From: a phage
Sequence record: PZ179880.1
Reading direction: 5' to 3' (one strand)
Length of the DNA: 64,000 nucleotides
Position 1 is the first letter of the stretch; the number at the start of each line of letters is the position of its first letter. The notes below the pieces were generated by a model. That model was given only the letters and a program-made list of their open reading frames with translations, was not told the DNA's origin and ran no database searches. Shown here piece after piece: positions 3,617-58,710 of the stretch. Made by a program: the position numbers and the translations under genes.

Positions 3617-3924
3617 TATTTACCAATAAATTGAAGCAAATGCTCAACTTTCATACCATTAACGGAAATCAATTTGTCAATAGAAAAACCTCGCCATGCA
3701 CCAAGCTCAACATCAAATACTGGAATCATATCAGTAGATTCTTTCCGAGTAGATTCAGTCAATTTACCAGTTTGCATGGTTGGCATAAAGTCAGCATCAC
3801 GAGTACCTTTCATAGTACGAATAGTACCATCAGACTTTTCAAAAACCACGTTTGAAATACCCATGGACAATTTAGTTTTCAAAATTTCACGAATTGCTAC
3901 TTTTTGTTCAGTCGTCAGTTTCAT
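3616..3924 (-). CDS. hypothetical protein (31.1-like position)
   Basis: 102-aa ORF between cd and 31. Confidence 0.45.
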   Translation of the reverse strand: MKLTTEQKVAIREILKTKLSMGISNVVFEKSDGTIRTMKGTRDADFMPTMQTGKLTESTRKESTDMIPVFDVELGAWRGFSIDKLISVNGMKVEHLLQFIGK

Positions 3925-4161
3925 TTATTTACCTATCACAGTTTTAATATGAGTTGTTCCACGTTCTTTAAGAGTGGAAAGCAATTTTTGGCATTTTTCT
4001 AAATCAGATTTCCAACTATGCGGTCTATCAATACAAACCCAGTTTGACTTATAATACTGCCTCCATTTAGAGAAAAAATACTTCTTATACTCTACAACAA
4101 ATGAAATGTTCTCGTTGGAATAAGAACTAATTGCTGTAAGTTGTACCAAACGAAATTTCAT
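3925..4161 (-). CDS. hypothetical protein (31.2-like position)
   Basis: 78-aa ORF, abuts cd stop. Confidence 0.45.
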   Translation of the reverse strand: MKFRLVQLTAISSYSNENISFVVEYKKYFFSKWRQYYKSNWVCIDRPHSWKSDLEKCQKLLSTLKERGTTHIKTVIGK

Positions 4162-6374: not shown

Positions 6375-6563
6375 ACGTTTTCCATGGTAAAGGCAGTTTA
6401 GTTTTCTTTACTACTAGTTCAACATCAGGATTCTTTTCTCTTAATTTAAGGCATTCCTCCCATGCTCTATTTTCACTAGTAAATACACAAAATTGCCCAT
6501 TACTAGTACCAACTAAACCGCTATTTACAATAACAATAGCCCAAGTTTCATGATGTAAAGCCA

Positions 6564-6564
<1 letters not shown>
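6367..6564 (-). CDS. hypothetical protein (65 aa)
   Basis: ORF, abuts pseT stop. Confidence 0.4.
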
Positions 6565-7785
<1,221 letters not shown>

Positions 7786-35442: not shown

Positions 35443-35469
35443 TAAAAAAGGGAGAGCCGAGGCTCTCCC
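35443..35469 (-). terminator. intrinsic terminator downstream of gene 52 / small membrane ORF
   Basis: 9-bp stem GGGAGAGCC/GGCUCUCCC followed by UUUUUUAUUU. Confidence 0.7.
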
Positions 35470-35477
35470 TAAAATTA

Positions 35478-35624
35478 CTACATGACTGTGATAACTGTCA
35501 TGATAACACGTTGAATTCCGAACGCAAGAAGACCTCCTGCTACGGCAGGAACAACACCTAAACCCGCCAGTAAAATGCTACCGGATACTAATGCAGCGCT
35601 TGTAATACCTATGAATGGACTCAT
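35478..35624 (-). CDS. small hydrophobic membrane peptide (48 aa)
   Basis: Not in ORF track (<60 aa); ATGA overlap with gene 52 stop; Gly/Ala/Val-rich TM sequence; terminator directly downstream. Confidence 0.45.
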   Translation of the reverse strand: MSPFIGITSAALVSGSILLAGLGVVPAVAGGLLAFGIQRVIMTVITVM

Positions 35625-36949
35625 TTGATTTCCTCTAAATCTTTGGTGTATTCTGTAACTACATCAGTAGTTTTCCAATATTCGTTTTCTTCTTTTTTAG
35701 CTTTAGCTTCTTCAGCAAGTTTCTTTGCTTCGTCGGAAGTCATATGAAAAATGTTCATTCCAACTAGTTTATCAACATAAGAAGAATACATCTCAATTTT
35801 AGAAAGTTCTTCGGTCAGTTCTTTACGAGTTTTACCCTGCACCACAATTTCACCTGAAATTACTTTCTTAATGAAATGTGCCTTGGCAAAGGCTAGACGA
35901 AATGCTGATTCAGTTTCTTTGATTTTGTTATCAATTCGTTTTTGGACATAAGTTTTACGAACTTCAACGAAGTCTTTGATTAAATCAACTACGTTGTCGT
36001 AAACTTGCAGCTTTCCTTTCTCATTAATAACGGTAATATTCTGGGAACGACGCTCAATCAACCCGAAGTCTTTCATAATTTTCGCGTGACGTTCTTCTTC
36101 GTTATCGCTCAAAGAGTATTCTTTGCGGAATTTAACTTTAAAGCCAAAGCCATGCTCACCACAAGCATCATCCCATGTAATGAAGCCTTTATCTTCAAGC
36201 GGGTCTAAGATTTTACTCACATAAGTTTCACGATCATACTTATATGGAATCTCAGTGATATGCATTTGGGTTCGTGAAGTAAACTTGTACGTTCCACGAA
36301 TTTCATATTGGCCATCAATTTCAACGACTTCACCACGAAATTCTGGGAATTCTACCTTCGGTTTAGTTACTTTCTTTCCTTGAAGAGCTTGTAGTACAGC
36401 TTTCTTGACAGAAGAAACACTATGAGGAAGAATGTAAGTTGCATAACCAGTTGCAATACCGGAAACACCATTAAGAAGAACAGTAGGAATAATAGGCAAA
36501 TAGAAAGCAGGAGGAATGTGTTCTTTATCTTGATGTACCGGAGCATATTCAGTATCTTTATATACGTTATAGAAATTTTTACTTACACGAGCAAAAATAT
36601 AACGACTTGCCGCTGCTTTTTGAACAGTACGAGAACCAAAGTTTCCTTGACCATCTAACAAAGGAAAGTTATTATTCCAAGTGTTAGCCATCAAAGCCCC
36701 CGCATCTTGTGCGGAGTTTTCGCCATGATGATATCCAAGGTCAGCTACACCACCTGCAATAGAAGCGAGTTTGTGAAACTTATCTTTATTTCCCCGTGCC
36801 AAATCAAGAGCTCGAGCGATAACAAATCGTTGAACTGGCTTAAATCCATCAATCATATTTGGAATAGCACGATTTTCAACCGTGTACATAGCATAAGCCA
36901 ATGCTTCATTATCAATGATACTTTTTAAATCACGATTATTCAGTTGCAT
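35621..36949 (-). CDS. 52: DNA topoisomerase II medium subunit gp52
   Basis: 442 aa; GyrA/ParC-like N-terminus with DNA-breakage region. Confidence 0.95.
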   Translation of the reverse strand: MQLNNRDLKSIIDNEALAYAMYTVENRAIPNMIDGFKPVQRFVIARALDLARGNKDKFHKLASIAGGVADLGYHHGENSAQDAGALMANTWNNNFPLLDGQGNFGSRTVQKAAASRYIFARVSKNFYNVYKDTEYAPVHQDKEHIPPAFYLPIIPTVLLNGVSGIATGYATYILPHSVSSVKKAVLQALQGKKVTKPKVEFPEFRGEVVEIDGQYEIRGTYKFTSRTQMHITEIPYKYDRETYVSKILDPLEDKGFITWDDACGEHGFGFKVKFRKEYSLSDNEEERHAKIMKDFGLIERRSQNITVINEKGKLQVYDNVVDLIKDFVEVRKTYVQKRIDNKIKETESAFRLAFAKAHFIKKVISGEIVVQGKTRKELTEELSKIEMYSSYVDKLVGMNIFHMTSDEAKKLAEEAKAKKEENEYWKTTDVVTEYTKDLEEIK

Positions 36950-36953
36950 AAAT

Positions 36954-37094
36954 TTACCATACTAGTGAATGTAGTGCCATAATAACATCAGAAATGAAAA
37001 GCACGACTTGAATTAATCCGAACATTACTCCATAATATAGCGCTATCAATAAAATAGCAAGGGCTACCGAGTAGCCCAAGATTTTCTTAATCAT
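36954..37094 (-). CDS. small hydrophobic peptide (46 aa, 52.1 slot)
   Basis: Hand-translated MIKKILGYSVALAILLIALYYGVMFGLIQVVLFISDVIMALHSLVW. Confidence 0.45.
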   Translation of the reverse strand: MIKKILGYSVALAILLIALYYGVMFGLIQVVLFISDVIMALHSLVW

Positions 37095-37245
37095 TAGTAG
37101 ATAACAACACAAATGTTAAATATGCACACATACCCTGGGCTAAAGCTTGTGAAAACACACTGCTAGCATCGATACAGATAGTTAAAACACATGCTACTAT
37201 CCAACAAATAAATGAAATAACTCCTAATAATTTTGCAATATTCAT
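37087..37245 (-). CDS. ac: small membrane protein Ac (acriflavine sensitivity)
   Basis: 52-aa hydrophobic ORF between stp and gene 52, as in T4. Confidence 0.55.
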   Translation of the reverse strand: MNIAKLLGVISFICWIVACVLTICIDASSVFSQALAQGMCAYLTFVLLSTND

Positions 37246-37252
37246 ATTTTCC

Positions 37253-37333
37253 TCACTGGCGTCCGAAGACGCCTTTAGTTTTAAGATTGTTACGATAGAA
37301 CTGCATCACGTGTTCGTTATGGAAATTACTCAT
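37253..37333 (-). CDS. stp: Stp peptide (activator of host PrrC anticodon nuclease / restriction alleviation)
   Basis: Hand-translated 26 aa [26 protein letters not shown], matching remembered T4 Stp. Confidence 0.8.
37262..37277 (-). other. UUCG-tetraloop hairpin within stp 3' coding region
   Basis: GGCGUC-UUCG-GACGCC encoding GVFGR, 6 nt before ac SD. Confidence 0.45.
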
Positions 37334-37788
37334 TAATATGCCTGCAAAACAAATTTAAAGTTATCAGCCAACATACGGTTCATTTCTTCAAGTGTTTGAT
37401 ACTCAGAATGATGATTACGAGTAAACGCTAAAGCTAACTGACCTTTTCCAAATCCCGTCGTCAGAGGTTTCATCTTAGAAGCAGGTAGATAAAATACTGT
37501 GTATGGAACATTGTTATTTGCAATAGTACGCGCGAGCTGGGACCGACGCTGACGAATATGACTTAGAACTGCACTGAATCCTTGCTTAGAACGCTGATTA
37601 CCTACATAAAATCGCGCAGATACACACGGACTATCAAATGGACCACCAAATTTACTCACTAAAAAGTAAAATCCAGGGTTAGATAAAATATCTTTATGCG
37701 GAGTTCCCAAAAACCACTCACCACCCTTGATTGTACCAATAACAGTAGCGCCTGCATTATTCAGATCAGTAACAGTCATGTATTTCAT
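37333..37788 (-). CDS. ndd: nucleoid disruption protein Ndd
   Basis: 151 aa from MKYMTVTDL (ORF track adds 16 codons); position upstream of stp. Confidence 0.7.
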
Positions 37789-37848
37789 ATTAATTTCCTC
37801 TAAATTATTTTCTACTCCAAGGCCACATGAATACACGCGGCCATTAAA

Positions 37849-38064
37849 TTAATCGTCGCAGTCGACGCTCAATTCCCAAAACTCTTCTACGGTATAAGTT
37901 TCAGTATCATTTTCAATACAGAAACGTTCATTACTGTTATTTGCTAAAGTAGCATTAACTGTCATTTTTTCGCTAGTGCTCTTAAGAGGTGAAATACGAA
38001 TTAACTGATCACCATTATCTAAACAGAAAATTTCACCAACTTTTACATCTTTAAAAATTTTCAT
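37849..38064 (-). CDS. hypothetical protein (71 aa)
   Basis: ORF. Confidence 0.4.
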   Translation of the reverse strand: MKIFKDVKVGEIFCLDNGDQLIRISPLKSTSEKMTVNATLANNSNERFCIENDTETYTVEEFWELSVDCDD

Positions 38065-38072
38065 AATTCACC

Positions 38073-38180
38073 TCAGGGAGTATAAAATCCAAATGCAGTT
38101 GTTGACCATCCCATCCAATATGGGATATTTGCGCCAATGTAAAATACAAGAATATAAAACCAAATGCTTAGTAAATTCAT
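38073..38180 (-). CDS. small hydrophobic peptide (35 aa)
   Basis: Hand-translated MNLLSIWFYILVFYIGANIPYWMGWSTTAFGFYTP; TAATG overlap. Confidence 0.35.
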   Translation of the reverse strand: MNLLSIWFYILVFYIGANIPYWMGWSTTAFGFYTP

Positions 38181-38398
38181 TATTTTACACCATTCCAAAT
38201 TGTTTCAACCACAGATTTCAAACCATTTTGGTGAATATCCATTCCGACAACTGCCATCAAATAGATTCCAACCACAACTGAAACCAAGGCGAAAATCAGC
38301 ATGAAAATGAATAAAGCTGGAAAAATATTATCGAAAAACCATTCCATAAATGTAAAAGCACTGCGTTTACGCTTCATATTTTCCTCACATAAATCCAA
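38180..38398 (-). CDS. small membrane protein (72 aa)
   Basis: Two hydrophobic helices. Confidence 0.45.
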   Translation of the reverse strand: MDLCEENMKRKRSAFTFMEWFFDNIFPALFIFMLIFALVSVVVGIYLMAVVGMDIHQNGLKSVVETIWNGVK

Positions 38399-38498
38399 AG
38401 TAAGCGTTTAATACATCAATCATTAAAACAATTGGGAATATACTCAAAACTACTAGTATTATAACTACATTCCATATAGCTTTAACAATCTTTTTCAT
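38385..38498 (-). CDS. small hydrophobic peptide (37 aa)
   Basis: GGAGGAA SD before ATG at 38496-38498; MKKIVKAIWNVVIILVVLSIF... Confidence 0.35.
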   Translation of the reverse strand: MKKIVKAIWNVVIILVVLSIFPIVLMIDVLNAYFGFM

Positions 38499-38524
38499 TT
38501 TCTGTTCCTCCGTAGTTGATAGGG

Positions 38525-38556
38525 TAATAATACCACAGAGGAACAGTCTTGTAAAC
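38525..38556 (-). promoter_or_regulatory. early promoter
   Basis: GTTTAC, 18 bp, TATTAT preceded by TGG. Confidence 0.45.
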
Positions 38557-38563
38557 AACTTTT

Positions 38564-38662
38564 TTAAAAATATTCGTAATAAATGTGAATGCCAATCACT
38601 ACTGCCGAAACTTGCGCAACCCACCATGCACAAGCAATAAGTACAGAATTCAAAATTTTCAT
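38564..38662 (-). CDS. small hydrophobic peptide (32 aa)
   Basis: Hand-translated MKILNSVLIACAWWVAQVSAVVIGIHIYYEYF. Confidence 0.35.
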   Translation of the reverse strand: MKILNSVLIACAWWVAQVSAVVIGIHIYYEYF

Positions 38663-38741
38663 AATAACCTCATCACAAAAGTAAATGTTAAACAAATTAA
38701 TGGAATACTAATTAACCAAATAAAACACCACCATAATGAAC

Positions 38742-39014
38742 TCATAGTTCAATCTCAGCGATTTTCATTTCATTACTATTAATAGCCGCTTTAAGACTAT
38801 CTGAAAGAATTACATTCCAGTGGTCATTCATATGACCATTAACCAAGCGTGTAATTTCTTCGGGAGTTGAAAAATAAGGCGTATCAGACTCCCAATGCGA
38901 TAGTCCCAAGCGAGTATAAATCATACCTTCATCATCGCTAGAATATTCAACTGACACAAACTCATCAGTTATTTTATGTTTAGCGTAATAAAATTTAAAT
39001 TTCATTTTACTCAA
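38742..39014 (-). CDS. hypothetical protein (90 aa)
   Basis: ORF. Confidence 0.45.
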   Translation of the reverse strand: MSKMKFKFYYAKHKITDEFVSVEYSSDDEGMIYTRLGLSHWESDTPYFSTPEEITRLVNGHMNDHWNVILSDSLKAAINSNEMKIAEIEL

Positions 39015-39217
39015 TAATCCGCTAAAAGATCGACGATTGCATCACGAAGACACTTATTCGCAATACGCTTAAGAGCAATTTCAGTTTCTGGAGCATTTTG
39101 AATAATCATTGAATTCAATTCAGCCTCAGCAAACTGAAGTTCTTTAACTAATTCAGCTTTATATTTTCCTTGCCCTTTCTTAGCTTTTGCTCGTTTTAAT
39201 TCAGCTGTAGTAAACAT
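39011..39217 (-). CDS. hypothetical basic protein (68 aa from MFTTAELKRAK)
   Basis: Early promoter at 39252-39291 lies inside the longer ORF-track version, so the internal start is preferred. Confidence 0.4.
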   Translation of the reverse strand: MFTTAELKRAKAKKGQGKYKAELVKELQFAEAELNSMIIQNAPETEIALKRIANKCLRDAIVDLLADY

Positions 39218-39242
39218 TTTATTCTCCAAATCCGTATCAGTT

Positions 39243-39291
39243 GATAGTTGTATAGTACCACAGTCCTTGTGGTATGTAAACTGTTTTGTGA
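39243..39291 (-). promoter_or_regulatory. early promoter cassette (PeSL-type), copy C
   Basis: GTTTAC, TGGTACTAT, conserved leader CAACTATCAACTGATAC; 7-bp hairpin TACCACA/TGTGGTA. Confidence 0.5.
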
Positions 39292-39297
39292 AAATTT

Positions 39298-39855
39298 TTA
39301 AATGGAAAGATACCATCCGTTGTAGTTGCTTTTTCTTACAACCTTACGAAGGTCTTCTCTATCACCGATGAACTTCGGAGTGTACTGGATGACACCTGGA
39401 TGAATTTCTTTAGTGTTGAATATAATTATACAGTCAGCGACTTGATGATTTAGAATGGGCCCTAGATTTATTCCAGAACCGTATGGATACTCTCCGCTGC
39501 ATCCGGTTGTTACCGAAATCCAACGTGAGTCAGTTTGATGTGTTTTGACTTCTACACGAAGCCCGCAGTATTTTGGATGCGCCAGTACATCCCACGCATA
39601 TGTATACGGGTCATTAACATCCTCTTGGCCTTTGTTAACGTACCCGCTTAGCCAATCTGCTACAAAAAATTCTGCGTACACAGCGATACGACATCTTTCA
39701 ATAACTTCTGCTTTATCCTGATTAGGATTTTGTTTTAAAGAGTATCTTGCTGTATCAGCAATTTTGACCTTCATTTCACTAGTCAAATCATTGTTCGATA
39801 GGGTAAATGTCGGAATCTGAAATAGTCTCTGTAAACCCGGATTCGTTTTCTGCAT
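39298..39855 (-). CDS. denB: endonuclease IV (cytosine-DNA specific)
   Basis: 185 aa; synteny rIIB-denB-ndd. Confidence 0.75.
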   Translation of the reverse strand: MQKTNPGLQRLFQIPTFTLSNNDLTSEMKVKIADTARYSLKQNPNQDKAEVIERCRIAVYAEFFVADWLSGYVNKGQEDVNDPYTYAWDVLAHPKYCGLRVEVKTHQTDSRWISVTTGCSGEYPYGSGINLGPILNHQVADCIIIFNTKEIHPGVIQYTPKFIGDREDLRKVVRKSNYNGWYLSI

Positions 39856-40127: not shown

Positions 40128-40150
40128 AAAACAAAAGGGCCGAAGCCCTT
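40128..40150 (-). terminator. UUCG hairpin flanked by U-runs on both strands
   Basis: AAGGGC-UUCG-GCCCUU then UUUGUUUU on mRNA. Confidence 0.45.
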
Positions 40151-40153
40151 ATT

Positions 40154-40348
40154 TTATTTGAATTGTGCAATTCTTTTCTCTAAACAATCTGCGTAAGATT
40201 TCATTGAGATAAATTGTGAAAGCAACAGTTCTTGTTCAACTTCATTAATCGTTAGAAACTTTGTGCTTTCTAAAAATTTGCTCAGTGCATTAATTTTGAG
40301 CATTAATTGATCGTATTCTTCTTTTACTCGTGCTTGATAACCTAACAT
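40154..40348 (-). CDS. hypothetical protein (64 aa)
   Basis: ORF flanked by two UUCG hairpins. Confidence 0.45.
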   Translation of the reverse strand: MLGYQARVKEEYDQLMLKINALSKFLESTKFLTINEVEQELLLSQFISMKSYADCLEKRIAQFK

Positions 40349-46083: not shown

Positions 46084-46260
46084 TTACCCTTTAAGTAAGT
46101 CGTAAAATCCACCATTCACATGCTTAGGAGCGGAAACTAACCGAATAGCAATCCGATGACAATCAGGACATACATCAGTATCCCTTTCAGAAATTTTCTT
46201 GATTTTTTCGTATTCTTTTGCGCAGTCTTTGGATTGGCATTTATAATCATAAAGCGGCAT
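46084..46260 (-). CDS. zinc-ribbon small protein (58 aa)
   Basis: Hand-translated; two Cys pairs (CQSKDC ... CPDC). Confidence 0.4.
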   Translation of the reverse strand: MPLYDYKCQSKDCAKEYEKIKKISERDTDVCPDCHRIAIRLVSAPKHVNGGFYDLLKG

Positions 46261-46262
46261 AA

Positions 46263-46676
46263 TTATTCCTTAAAGTGAGCTTTCAACATCTGATACAAAG
46301 ACCATGCCTGTTCATTATTTTCAATAGTAACTTTCATTACAGGGAATTCTGTAAAATCTTCTATTTGTTCTTGCTCTTCCTGCTCTTGCTCTTCGGCTGC
46401 CTGGTATGGATTTTCCACTTCATCAAAGAACTTTGCATCGTCCGCTAAAAGACAAATATAATTTTCATCGCAAATATCTTTATATAAAAATAATGTTCTG
46501 CTAGATGTCATAATTTTAATTGGAGTTTGAAGAGAATCAACATCCAAGATTTTAAAAGGTTGCATATCTAAACGTTGTGCATAAATTTTATTCTCAGTAT
46601 GGTCTTCAATAAAAGCTTCTTGAGCTTGTTTATTTTTAAATTGATACCATTTATTAACTTCAAATTTAATAGCCAT
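46263..46676 (-). CDS. hypothetical acidic protein (goF-like position)
   Basis: 137-aa ORF with [10 protein letters not shown] tract. Confidence 0.45.
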
Positions 46677-58509: not shown

Positions 58510-58710
58510 ATGGCACAAAAATTAATGGCACTTGTTAATGCCATCAAAGGTAATAAGAAACGTATAGCTTTTACTATTTCTGCTATGGTAGGAATTTTAC
58601 TCTGGAACTTTATTTTATCACCAATTGCAATTGCGCATGGTGTTAATATTCCAGTAGTTACTCTTGATACATTCGTAGATCTAGCATTTGCTTTAGTTGG
58701 GTTAATTTAA
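58510..58710 (+). CDS. small two-helix membrane protein (66 aa)
   Basis: Plus-strand ORF in a gap with no minus-strand ORF; strong SD AAAGGAGGA 5 nt before ATG; hydrophobic. Confidence 0.4.
   Translation: MAQKLMALVNAIKGNKKRIAFTISAMVGILLWNFILSPIAIAHGVNIPVVTLDTFVDLAFALVGLI

Follow-up and report, generated by a model that had tools for sequence, protein, structure and literature searches.

Eight hydrophobic micro-proteins encoded in an early gene block of a T4-like phage, candidate modulators of the host envelope

The window analysed here, a stretch of 64,000 nucleotides (record PZ179880.1), belongs to a Tequatrovirus (T4-like phage) and is 95-97% identical to Tequatrovirus genomes. It contains the block of T-even early genes motA.1 / 52 / 52.1 / ac / stp / ndd / ndd.1-ndd.6 (Table 1). 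Eight of these genes (motA.1, 52.1, ac, ndd.2, a 65-aa gene corresponding to ndd.2a/3, ndd.4, ndd.5 and ndd.6) code for mutually unrelated hydrophobic proteins of 28-65 residues. The T4 reference (NC_000866, T4p263-T4p275) presents the same order, strand and lengths, with 89-100% amino-acid identity to the window genes, and shares their PHROG and Pfam families and the neighbours motA, 52, stp, ndd, denB and rIIB. Between ndd.6 and denB, the window carries two extra ORFs of 87 and 101 aa that T4 lacks, and its Ac has one more Thr than that of the T4 reference.

Table 1. Genes and regulatory features of the early block, in coordinates of the window
Feature	Position	Strand	Description
motA.1	35478..35624	-	48-aa Gly/Ala-rich hydrophobic protein; 100% identical to T4 motA.1 over 48 aa
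52.1	36954..37094	-	46-aa hydrophobic protein; 4 nt upstream of topoisomerase gene 52
ac	37087..37245	-	52-aa Ac (acridine sensitivity); allele with extra Thr near C-terminus
stp	37253..37333	-	26-aa hydrophilic peptide, activator of host PrrC anticodon nuclease; context only
ndd	37333..37788	-	nucleoid disruption protein, 151 aa; 97% identical to T4 Ndd; context/anchor
ndd.1	37849..38064	-	71-aa soluble acidic protein; 97% identical to T4 ndd.1; phrog_2183; context only
ndd.2	38073..38180	-	35-aa aromatic-rich hydrophobic protein without charged residues; conserved N.PYW.GWS motif
65-aa gene (T4 'ndd.2a' + 'ndd.3' as one ORF)	38180..38377	-	basic N-terminus, one predicted TM segment, conserved C-terminal NGLKSVVE.IWNG
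ndd.4	38385..38498	-	37 aa, predicted single-TM; MKK..KAIWN then TM segment; GGAGG SD upstream
ndd.5	38564..38662	-	32 aa, predicted single-TM; Tequatrovirus only; phrog_5011
ndd.6	38659..38745	-	28 aa, predicted single-TM with Cys/Trp; 93% identical to T4 ndd.6; phrog_8851
Early-type promoter	38527..38555	-	TTTACA-N17-TATTAT with TG; in 65-nt spacer ahead of ndd.4
Second early-type promoter	39252..39280	-	TTTACA-N17-TACTAT with TG; upstream of 87-aa ORF, ndd.6, ndd.5
Intrinsic terminator hairpin past motA.1	35449..35470	-	9-bp stem then T-run; terminator in G50 and ASO78A annotation
Early-type promoter for motA	35417-35389	-	after motA.1 terminator hairpin
Two tandem RNA hairpins in 52.1	37041..37077	-	codons ~7-19; U-rich tract follows
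C(UUCG)G tetraloop hairpin	37258..37273	-	last stp codons, just upstream of ac SD; terminator in G50 annotation

A preliminary description of the window had listed seven short membrane-like ORFs. All seven are present on the minus strand, each running from an ATG to a stop codon, and they match one-to-one motA.1, 52.1, ac, ndd.2, ndd.2a/ndd.3, ndd.4 and ndd.5 of the T4 annotation. Six had been delimited exactly (35478-35624, 48 aa; 36954-37094, 46 aa; 37087-37245, 52 aa; 38073-38180, 35 aa; 38385-38498, 37 aa; 38564-38662, 32 aa). The remaining one, given as 38180-38398, had been opened too far upstream, at a TTG; it truly begins at the ATG at 38377, preceded by the SD sequence GAGGAAAAT, and the product has 65 aa as annotated in relatives. 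The extension to the TTG at 38398 and an 80-82-aa extension of ndd.4 (38385-38633) were rejected: they are not conserved, span a promoter or an SD sequence and are interrupted by stops in relatives. An eighth hydrophobic micro-ORF, ndd.6, had been missed, and Stp is hydrophilic (GRAVY -1.03) and hence stands outside the membrane set.

At the position of the 65-aa gene, the T4 reference has two entries, ndd.2a and ndd.3. The 65-aa protein is intact in T4 genomes that have been sequenced again, and the split goes back to a single base that is absent from the original T4 reference sequence alone. The ndd.2a and ndd.3 of that reference are two fragments of a single gene.

The genes form tightly coupled operons that are preceded by early-type promoters of T4. 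The micro-gene starts have an SD sequence or a coupling overlap. One-nucleotide overlaps, previously thought to link the small ORFs as well as ndd, stp and ac, occur only from ndd to stp and from the 65-aa gene to ndd.2 (both TAATG), all other junctions being different. The pairs ndd.6/ndd.5 and 52/motA.1 overlap by 4 nt (ATGA) and ac/52.1 by 8 nt; ndd.5 and ndd.4 are separated by a 65-nt spacer carrying a promoter, and the remaining spacers measure 4-8 nt (7 nt for stp/ac).

The coding nature of the small ORFs is supported by several lines of evidence. Between 36950 and 38750, the minus strand contains seven hydrophobic ATG-initiated ORFs of 25-80 aa, against 1.03 +/- 0.99 expected in first-order Markov random sequences (n=500, maximum 5). 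In 10 Tequatrovirus genomes, the variable sites of all eight ORFs pooled are distributed 37/28/79 over the codon positions (chi-square p = 2e-7) and the pooled dN/dS is 0.17 in frame versus 1.21 and 1.37 in the shifted frames. Chance ORFs are ruled out by the Markov control together with the codon-position and dN/dS tests. Considered gene by gene within Tequatrovirus (alignment-based dN/dS), the ratio is 0.05 for motA.1, 0.05 for ac, 0.12 for ndd.2, 0.07 for the 65-aa gene and 0.06 for ndd.5, whose variable sites are distributed 1/0/9 by codon position. Purifying selection is weak on ndd.6 (0.58), and ndd.4, with too few within-genus substitutions for a test, has a cross-genus dN/dS of 0.23. 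The cross-genus values of the micro-genes range from 0.23 to 0.54, Ndd being comparable at 0.26. ORF lengths are essentially constant and the family-specific motifs are kept. The micro-ORFs are genuine protein-coding genes under purifying selection. The preliminary description had made its proposal depend on the conservation of the frames among relatives, and they are conserved.

Each micro-protein matches its own PHROG family with E-values of 1e-17 to 1e-30. The matches are full-length for motA.1 (phrog_3487, E 3e-30), ndd.2 (phrog_4135, 1e-22), ndd.4 (phrog_3098, 3e-21), ndd.5 (phrog_5011, 4e-26) and ndd.6 (phrog_8851, 4e-17). The 65-aa protein belongs to phrog_2401 (E 8e-30) and aligns through residues 5-63 with positions 3-57 of the 58 of PF23906 (DUF7248, the T4 Ndd.2a family; 73.6 bits, cutoff 27). 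The 52.1 protein is in phrog_3595 and is covered by PF24129 (DUF7396) over residues 1-46 of 46 (78.8 bits, cutoff 27); its 35/35 strong database matches carry this domain and all come from T4-like enterobacterial phages. Stp, 100% identical to T4 Stp, matches the anticodon nuclease activator family PF08133 (75.3 bits, cutoff 25). The NCBIfam search gave nothing meaningful, no PDB relative of 52.1, Ac or the 65-aa protein was retrieved even at E = 10, and profile, PDB and database searches detected no sequence similarity outside T4-like phages. A tandem array of paralogues was also considered and rejected: the iterated HMM sets have no member in common and none of the 28 pairwise hhalign probabilities reaches 1%.

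The preliminary description had implied that these genes were overlooked. They are all annotated in T4, where the reference record predicts a membrane or periplasmic location for every micro-gene product; each has a PHROG family and two also have a Pfam family. The cluster is already known as a dispensable early set of predicted membrane micro-proteins, and was described as one of the predicted membrane-protein gene clusters of T4, within the deletable saΔ9 region (PMC6071114). The T4 annotation has included the genes for decades, and their grouping as predicted membrane proteins within an early region that can be deleted is on record; as a discovery, the set carries little weight. Many automated phage annotations omit these coding ORFs or attach a wrong label to them ('terminator', 'naphthalene 1,2-dioxygenase' or 'outer membrane protein').

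The set of genes present in the block differs from one T4-like genus to another: 52.1 and ndd.4 are widespread, and ndd.5 is restricted to Tequatrovirus. Among 47 T4-like loci, 52.1 was found in 36, ndd.4 in 33 (and in 596 phage records) and ndd.6 in 23. The ndd.4 protein is 55-61% identical in Dhakavirus and 44% in Marfa, and ndd.6 is 44-54% identical in Dhakavirus and Mosigvirus. The ndd.2 protein is 89% identical to that of T4 and 46% to that of Klebsiella phage Marfa. PeSL (promoter-early stem-loop) cassettes have been described in hyperplastic regions of T4-like phages (Comeau 2014, PMC4122927), and reportedly also in work by Arbiol in 2010. The promoter at 38527-38555, annotated as an early promoter at the same site in phage ASO78A, fits the PeSL consensus TTTACW-N17-TAYWAT, and the exchange of an ndd.4/ndd.5 cassette through PeSLs is an example in Fig. 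6A of the study that gives this consensus (PMC4122927). Like PeSL cassettes, the micro-gene modules of the window are flanked by early promoters of this type and stem-loops (38555-38527, 39280-39252, 35470-35389), and their gene content differs between genera. However, PeSLs account for shuffling and not for protein action, they are not found at every junction and most genes of the block are joined by coupling overlaps.

In T4, the micro-genes are transcribed early (PMC9697503 Table S2). Time-resolved shotgun proteomics detected Ndd and, as an early protein, Ndd.1, whereas all eight micro-proteins and Stp went undetected (PMC9697503), as expected since these proteins are tiny and hydrophobic. 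The literature search retrieved no ribosome-profiling study of T4. By CRISPRi-ART, all the micro-genes were scored 'Not Fit' and gene 52 'Fit' (PMC11879866 supplements). The micro-genes are individually dispensable in the laboratory. With the block removed in saΔ9, the phage yield is halved, production running at 50% of the wild-type rate, and the phage-induced stimulation of phosphatidylglycerol synthesis is lost (PMC6071114). This lipid phenotype could stem from ndd, denB or stp and not from any micro-protein.

The gene 52.1 raises the question of the nature of the small ORFs most sharply. It could be argued that some or all of them are chance frames in an AT-rich spacer whose real role is that of regulatory RNA or DNA, such as terminators, hairpins or PeSL recombination motifs. 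The argument has most force at 36954-37094, where two GenBank records (G50 and ASO78A) annotate a rho-independent 'terminator' inside 52.1 without calling the ORF and several others leave it unannotated. Both hairpins, which lie in the first third of the gene, are conserved (99.5% of cells paired over 16 distinct sequences), with one compensatory change from C-G to U-A, and in divergent genera their place is taken by another stable hairpin. The silence of mass spectrometry on the proteins would also fit. On the other hand, the dN/dS of 52.1 is 0.24-0.35 in frame versus ~1 in frame +2, over the hairpins as well as over the last 27 codons, its length stays at 44-46 codons, and the LYYG...VLFISDVI...SLIW residues are kept across genera in which Ndd is 56-64% identical. 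Non-coding evolution is moreover rejected by the pooled test on the eight ORFs, and an RNA structure is compatible with a coding function. A purely regulatory role is very improbable. The AlphaFold2 model of 52.1 is a single helix (residues 2-45, pLDDT 96), which does not discriminate a helical hairpin from a single pass; it was not used in a fold search because a lone helix gives meaningless matches.

The position of 52.1 also suggests that, with motA.1, it might serve the phage itself as a membrane tether or accessory subunit of the T4 topoisomerase II or replication complex, instead of acting on the host. The two genes lie on either side of gene 52 and are coupled to it in translation. Gene 52.1 lies immediately upstream of gene 52 in 36/36 loci, and in most genera a hydrophobic ORF of 22-77 aa, from differing families, overlaps the gene 52 stop (ATGA). 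The conservation of 52.1 exceeds that of Ndd (85-89% versus 60-64% identity in Dhakavirus). Adjacency is nonetheless weak evidence, since synteny is generally conserved in T4-like phages, and saΔ9 is viable although 52.1 is removed. As the knock-downs of 52.1 and motA.1 are neutral, in contrast with the fitness defect of the gene 52 knock-down, this role in replication is retained only as a low-probability alternative.

The eight micro-proteins are all strongly hydrophobic on the Kyte-Doolittle scale, in agreement with the membrane-like character first attributed to the set. Their best 19-residue window, a length that meets that of a bilayer span, scores 1.64-3.05. Their insertion into the inner membrane and their topology are predictions from hydropathy. 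A lipoprotein nature of ndd.5 (LIAC motif, residues 8-11) was dismissed on inspection because the Cys lies too near the N-terminus for a signal peptide.

Within the set, a phenotype is known for Ac only. Expression of Ac sensitises E. coli to acriflavine and ampicillin, and the acridine phenotype was reported for T4 and for the Ac allele of PP01, which also bears the additional Thr (bioRxiv 10.1101/2025.06.30.662393). Ac was proposed to block AcrAB-TolC efflux (preprint bioRxiv 10.1101/2025.06.30.662393; cited in PMC13250531). The window Ac (phrog_2501, E 3.7e-25; 96% identical to T4 Ac) keeps the SSVFSQALAQG loop with Gly38, the residue whose change G38R confers resistance. The seven other micro-proteins are not homologous to Ac and its phenotype can therefore not be transferred to them. 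As the preliminary description had stated, functions beyond ac and stp are largely uncharacterised: none was found in the searchable literature, where results for the gene names are dominated by the neurodevelopmental 'NDD'. A phage toxicity screen concerned another phage and used ndd only as a control (PMC6893735).

Bacteria possess small inner-membrane protein regulators, such as AcrZ that binds AcrB and MgrB that binds PhoQ. The phage micro-proteins resemble them by their size (~30-65 aa), their one or two predicted hydrophobic helices and, for Ac, the suggested class of target; no sequence similarity was detected and the parallel is one of mode of action, not of membership. On balance, we consider it probable, with some reserve, that this T-even early block encodes eight hydrophobic micro-proteins acting as early inner-membrane modulators of host envelope machines, from accessory genes shuffled as cassettes. 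The peptides would insert into the inner membrane within minutes of infection and each would modulate a host envelope machine in the manner of the bacterial small membrane proteins. The proposed target of Ac is the AcrAB-TolC efflux pump, and one or more of the other micro-proteins probably underlie the change in phospholipid synthesis. As accessory and host-adaptive genes, they may have moved between PeSL motifs.

Other host-related roles were weighed against this modulation of envelope machines. Besides envelope-targeting takeover, the preliminary description had suggested immunity or superinfection-exclusion factors, which, like the T4 membrane proteins Imm and Sp, would keep out the DNA of secondary phages or prevent lysis from without by them. 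None of the present results points to superinfection immunity in particular. Early expression, the predicted membrane location and dispensability in single-infection laboratory assays would be expected of such factors. They are however without sequence relation to the Imm or Sp families, the Pfam and PHROG scans returning for each its own family only, and acridine sensitivity and phospholipid synthesis are the only traits mapped to the block. T4 exclusion is genetically accounted for by imm and sp, located elsewhere in the genome, and an exclusion role appears unlikely. Counter-defence against membrane-associated abortive-infection systems is likewise doubtful. It would suit the conflict genes of the same block, i.e. 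stp (PrrC/EcoprrI), rIIB/rIIA (RexAB) and arn (McrBC), the genus-variable content and PeSL shuffling typical of accessory host-range genes, and the dispensability on laboratory hosts. Yet the literature search found no paper on escape mutants or defence screens that names these genes, and the maintenance of 52.1 and ndd.4 across genera with different hosts fits a conserved host physiology better than sporadic defence.

A more specific version of the envelope-modulator reading can be put forward tentatively, as a possibility that we do not consider the likeliest. Each micro-protein would dock on a different conserved inner-membrane machine of the host, an RND efflux pump for Ac and, for one of 52.1/ndd.2-ndd.6, the enzymes of phospholipid synthesis on which the PG:PE ratio depends. 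The coding sequence of 52.1 would in addition serve as a conserved terminator or attenuator hairpin parting the early ac transcript from gene 52.

These micro-genes rank among the most conserved T-even genes without an assigned function. The block that carries them is needed for the phage-induced shift in host phospholipid synthesis, and one of its products, Ac, may disable a multidrug efflux pump. If true, a toolkit of micro-proteins directed at distinct envelope machines would account for the long-puzzling stimulation of phosphatidylglycerol synthesis by T4 that is lost in saΔ9.

The array of hydrophobic micro-protein ORFs around ac, stp and ndd is real, but its members are T4 genes that were annotated long ago and belong to a known, nonessential early cluster of membrane-protein genes. 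Several hundred Tequatrovirus (T4-like) genomes match the surrounding 3.8 kb at 95-97% identity, Escherichia phage vB_EcoM_G50 best of all, and the genes of this stretch all lie on the minus strand. On the basis of the annotated T4 reference (NC_000866) and of tblastn searches with each ORF against T4, T2, G50 and others, the window ORFs correspond one-to-one to T4 genes (see table). All eight micro-proteins (motA.1, 52.1, ac, ndd.2, the 65-aa gene, ndd.4, ndd.5 and ndd.6) are annotated in NC_000866 as predicted membrane, periplasmic or outer-membrane proteins and belong to existing PHROG families. Pfam places 52.1 in DUF7396, the 65-aa gene in DUF7248 and Stp in PF08133. A number of GenBank phage records (e.g. 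NC_054942, MH809535, MW749000) bear doubtful names: in several, homologues of the 37-aa ndd.4 or the 65-aa ndd.2a are called 'naphthalene 1,2-dioxygenase', and in others ndd.5 and ndd.6 are called 'outer membrane protein'. For ORFs so small and hydrophobic, these names have the look of annotation errors passed on from record to record.

Features of the region, with family presence among 47 T4-like loci and dN/dS within Tequatrovirus
Feature	Position	Strand	Length	Loci (of 47)	dN/dS
motA.1	35478-35624	-	48 aa	12	0.05
gene 52	35621-36949	-	442 aa		
52.1	36954-37094	-	46 aa	36	0.24
Two tandem RNA hairpins, then U-rich tract (codons about 7-19, 5' third, of 52.1)	37041-37077	-			
ac	37087-37245	-	52 aa	17	0.05
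stp	37253-37333	-	26 aa		
C(UUCG)G tetraloop hairpin	37258-37273				
ndd	37333-37788	-	151 aa		
ndd.1	37849-38064	-	71 aa		
ndd.2	38073-38180	-	35 aa	19	0.12
ndd.2a + ndd.3 (single ORF)	38180-38377	-	65 aa	17	0.07
ndd.4	38385-38498	-	37 aa	33	
PeSL promoter consensus match	38555-38527	-			
ndd.5	38564-38662	-	32 aa	10	0.06
ndd.6	38659-38745	-	28 aa	23	
phrog_2390 ORF	38742-39005	-	87 aa	22	
phrog_4535 ORF	39011-39316	-	101 aa		
PeSL promoter consensus match	39280-39252	-			
C(UUCG)G tetraloop hairpin	40135-40150				
denB.1 homologue	40154-40348	-	64 aa		
Small hydrophobic ORF	46137-46250	-			
Small hydrophobic ORF	46156-46278	+			
Small hydrophobic ORF	58510-58710	+			

Beyond ndd.6, two ORFs without T4 counterpart precede denB and rIIB, whereas only ~100 nt separate ndd.6 from denB in T4. 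Both encode soluble proteins of unknown function, and the 101-aa ORF, which harbours an early-type promoter, extends 19 nt over the stop of denB. The denB.1 homologue matches PF21825 (crAss001_48-related protein; 69.7 bits for a cutoff of 24.8). Three further small hydrophobic ORFs occur elsewhere in the window, in stretches that long ORFs do not cover.

The seven ORFs listed in the preliminary description are all present in the sequence, six with exact coordinates; the seventh, 38180-38398, starts at ATG 38377 behind GAGGAAAAT and not at the upstream TTG. The list omitted ndd.6. All eight micro-proteins are strongly hydrophobic, unlike Stp. Between 36950 and 38750 the coding strand holds seven hydrophobic ATG-ORFs of 25-80 aa, a density above chance, since 500 first-order Markov randomisations gave 1.03 +/- 0.99. 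The linkage by 1-nt overlaps is found only at ndd/stp and at the 65-aa gene/ndd.2 (TAATG); at the remaining junctions the genes overlap by ATGA or by 8 nt (ac/52.1), or are set apart by 4-8 nt or by a 65-nt spacer with a promoter.

Selection on these frames was measured by comparing ten genomes of Tequatrovirus. Pooled over the eight hydrophobic ORFs, dN/dS amounts to 0.17 for the annotated frame versus 1.21 and 1.37 for the two shifted ones, and variable sites at codon positions 1/2/3 number 37/28/79 (p = 2e-7). The weakest signal is that of ndd.6 (0.58), while ndd.4, with too few changes within the genus, gives 0.23 across genera. Family presence was scored by iterated HMM searches in 47 T4-like loci, made up of the window, eight annotated phages from GenBank and 38 contigs that an Ndd profile picked out of IMG/VR; Ndd identity among these loci ranges from 42% to 100%. 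The position of the eight families is always syntenic and their ORF length nearly invariant. In-frame purifying selection and synteny therefore clearly establish the conservation among relatives on which the preliminary description had made its reading depend. That the ORFs are not genes is the sole rival reading excluded. The micro-genes are co-directional, early-promoter-driven, translationally coupled and under purifying selection.

The RNA structure inside 52.1 bears on the same question, since two GenBank records annotate a terminator at this site and omit the gene. Across 16 distinct sequences the tandem hairpins are 99.5% paired and show a single compensatory pair; they are conserved in Tequatrovirus, Dhakavirus and Gaprivervirus, and other genera carry a different stable hairpin in the same place. 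As the coding signal persists in this part (dN/dS 0.32), the sequence probably serves both coding and hairpin purposes. It is most improbable that the micro-ORFs are non-coding or a terminator only. The final stp codons also form a C(UUCG)G tetraloop hairpin, immediately ahead of the ac ribosome-binding site, and a second lies just past the denB.1 ORF. A terminator and a promoter follow motA.1. Two sites match the promoter consensus of promoter-early stem-loop (PeSL) motifs, and the ndd.4/ndd.5 cassette is a published example of exchange via PeSL motifs (Comeau et al., PMC4122927).

In the T4 reference (6433-6629 of the NC_000866 locus), ndd.2a (40 aa) and ndd.3 (26 aa, a PHROG singleton) stand as separate genes because a single base is missing after ATGAA. 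Only X75802, AF158101 and NC_000866 match an 80-nt probe over this site in full (80/80), and all three are apparently one original reference sequence. The extra base is present in about 490 other phages and in the re-sequenced T4 genomes OZ209023 and KJ477684, which translate to an intact 65-aa protein. The two listed genes are fragments of a single 65-aa gene. Laboratory strain T2 (MH751506) appears to have lost two micro-genes, since ac is cut to a 13-codon CDS (2788-2829 of its locus) and the 65-aa gene is prematurely stopped at codon 45 (3894-4088).

Conserved motifs differ from family to family, and no paralogy was detected among the eight (hhalign <1% in all 28 pairs). Against 5.8 billion proteins, the 52.1 profile retrieved no more than 36 clusters, whose sources are essentially all phage contigs or T4-like phages of Enterobacterales; no solved structure was found among relatives. 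By tblastn over 50,697 phage records, Ndd occurs in 1081, 52.1 in 813 and ndd.4 in 596. One to four unrelated hydrophobic ORFs of 44-66 aa still occupy the ndd-52 interval of T4-like phages that are more distant, and the ORF behind gene 52 is usually hydrophobic there too, coupled by ATGA and from a different family (loci L005, L008, L029, L032, L035 and L041). Because distant phages keep these positions with unrelated ORFs, the presence of small hydrophobic ORFs beside gene 52 predates any single family. Among the interval families of other genera, one is marked by a G.W.P motif and another by the C-terminal pattern ER......CGV.K.

The micro-genes are non-essential in the laboratory, and their content varies between genera. 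The viable T4 deletion saΔ9 covers 52.1, ac, stp, ndd, ndd.1-ndd.6 and denB; viable phage are made at half (50%) the wild-type rate, and infection no longer stimulates phosphatidylglycerol synthesis (Kutter et al., PMC6071114). In genome-wide CRISPRi-ART, motA.1, 52.1, ac, stp, ndd and ndd.2-ndd.6 scored 'Not Fit' and gene 52 'Fit' (PMC11879866). Time-resolved omics of T4 recorded the micro-genes as early transcripts with undetected protein, Ndd and Ndd.1 being detected (PMC9697503). Functional data exist for Ac only: its deletion or the G38R change makes T4 resistant to acriflavine, E. coli expressing it becomes more sensitive to acriflavine and ampicillin, and a block of AcrAB-TolC was proposed (bioRxiv 10.1101/2025.06.30.662393) and repeated (PMC13250531).

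Topology was guessed only from charge distribution and hydropathy. Basic N-termini suggest an N-in orientation for 52.1, ndd.4, ndd.5 and the 65-aa protein, whose conserved 20-residue C-terminal tail would then be periplasmic. Ndd.2 is aromatic-rich with zero charged residues. AlphaFold2 predicts 52.1 as a single 44-residue helix (pLDDT 96), which exceeds the bilayer length and fits a hairpin or a single pass. That 52.1 and motA.1, encoded on either side of gene 52, form a topoisomerase tether is unlikely. A role of the micro-proteins in superinfection exclusion is equally doubtful, and one as anti-defence factors only slightly less so. The most likely reading, with Ac as the paradigm, is that at an early stage of infection the micro-proteins become inserted in the inner membrane and that each modulates some host envelope complex; the lipid phenotype of saΔ9 would be a likely read-out of this activity, either collective or of a single member.
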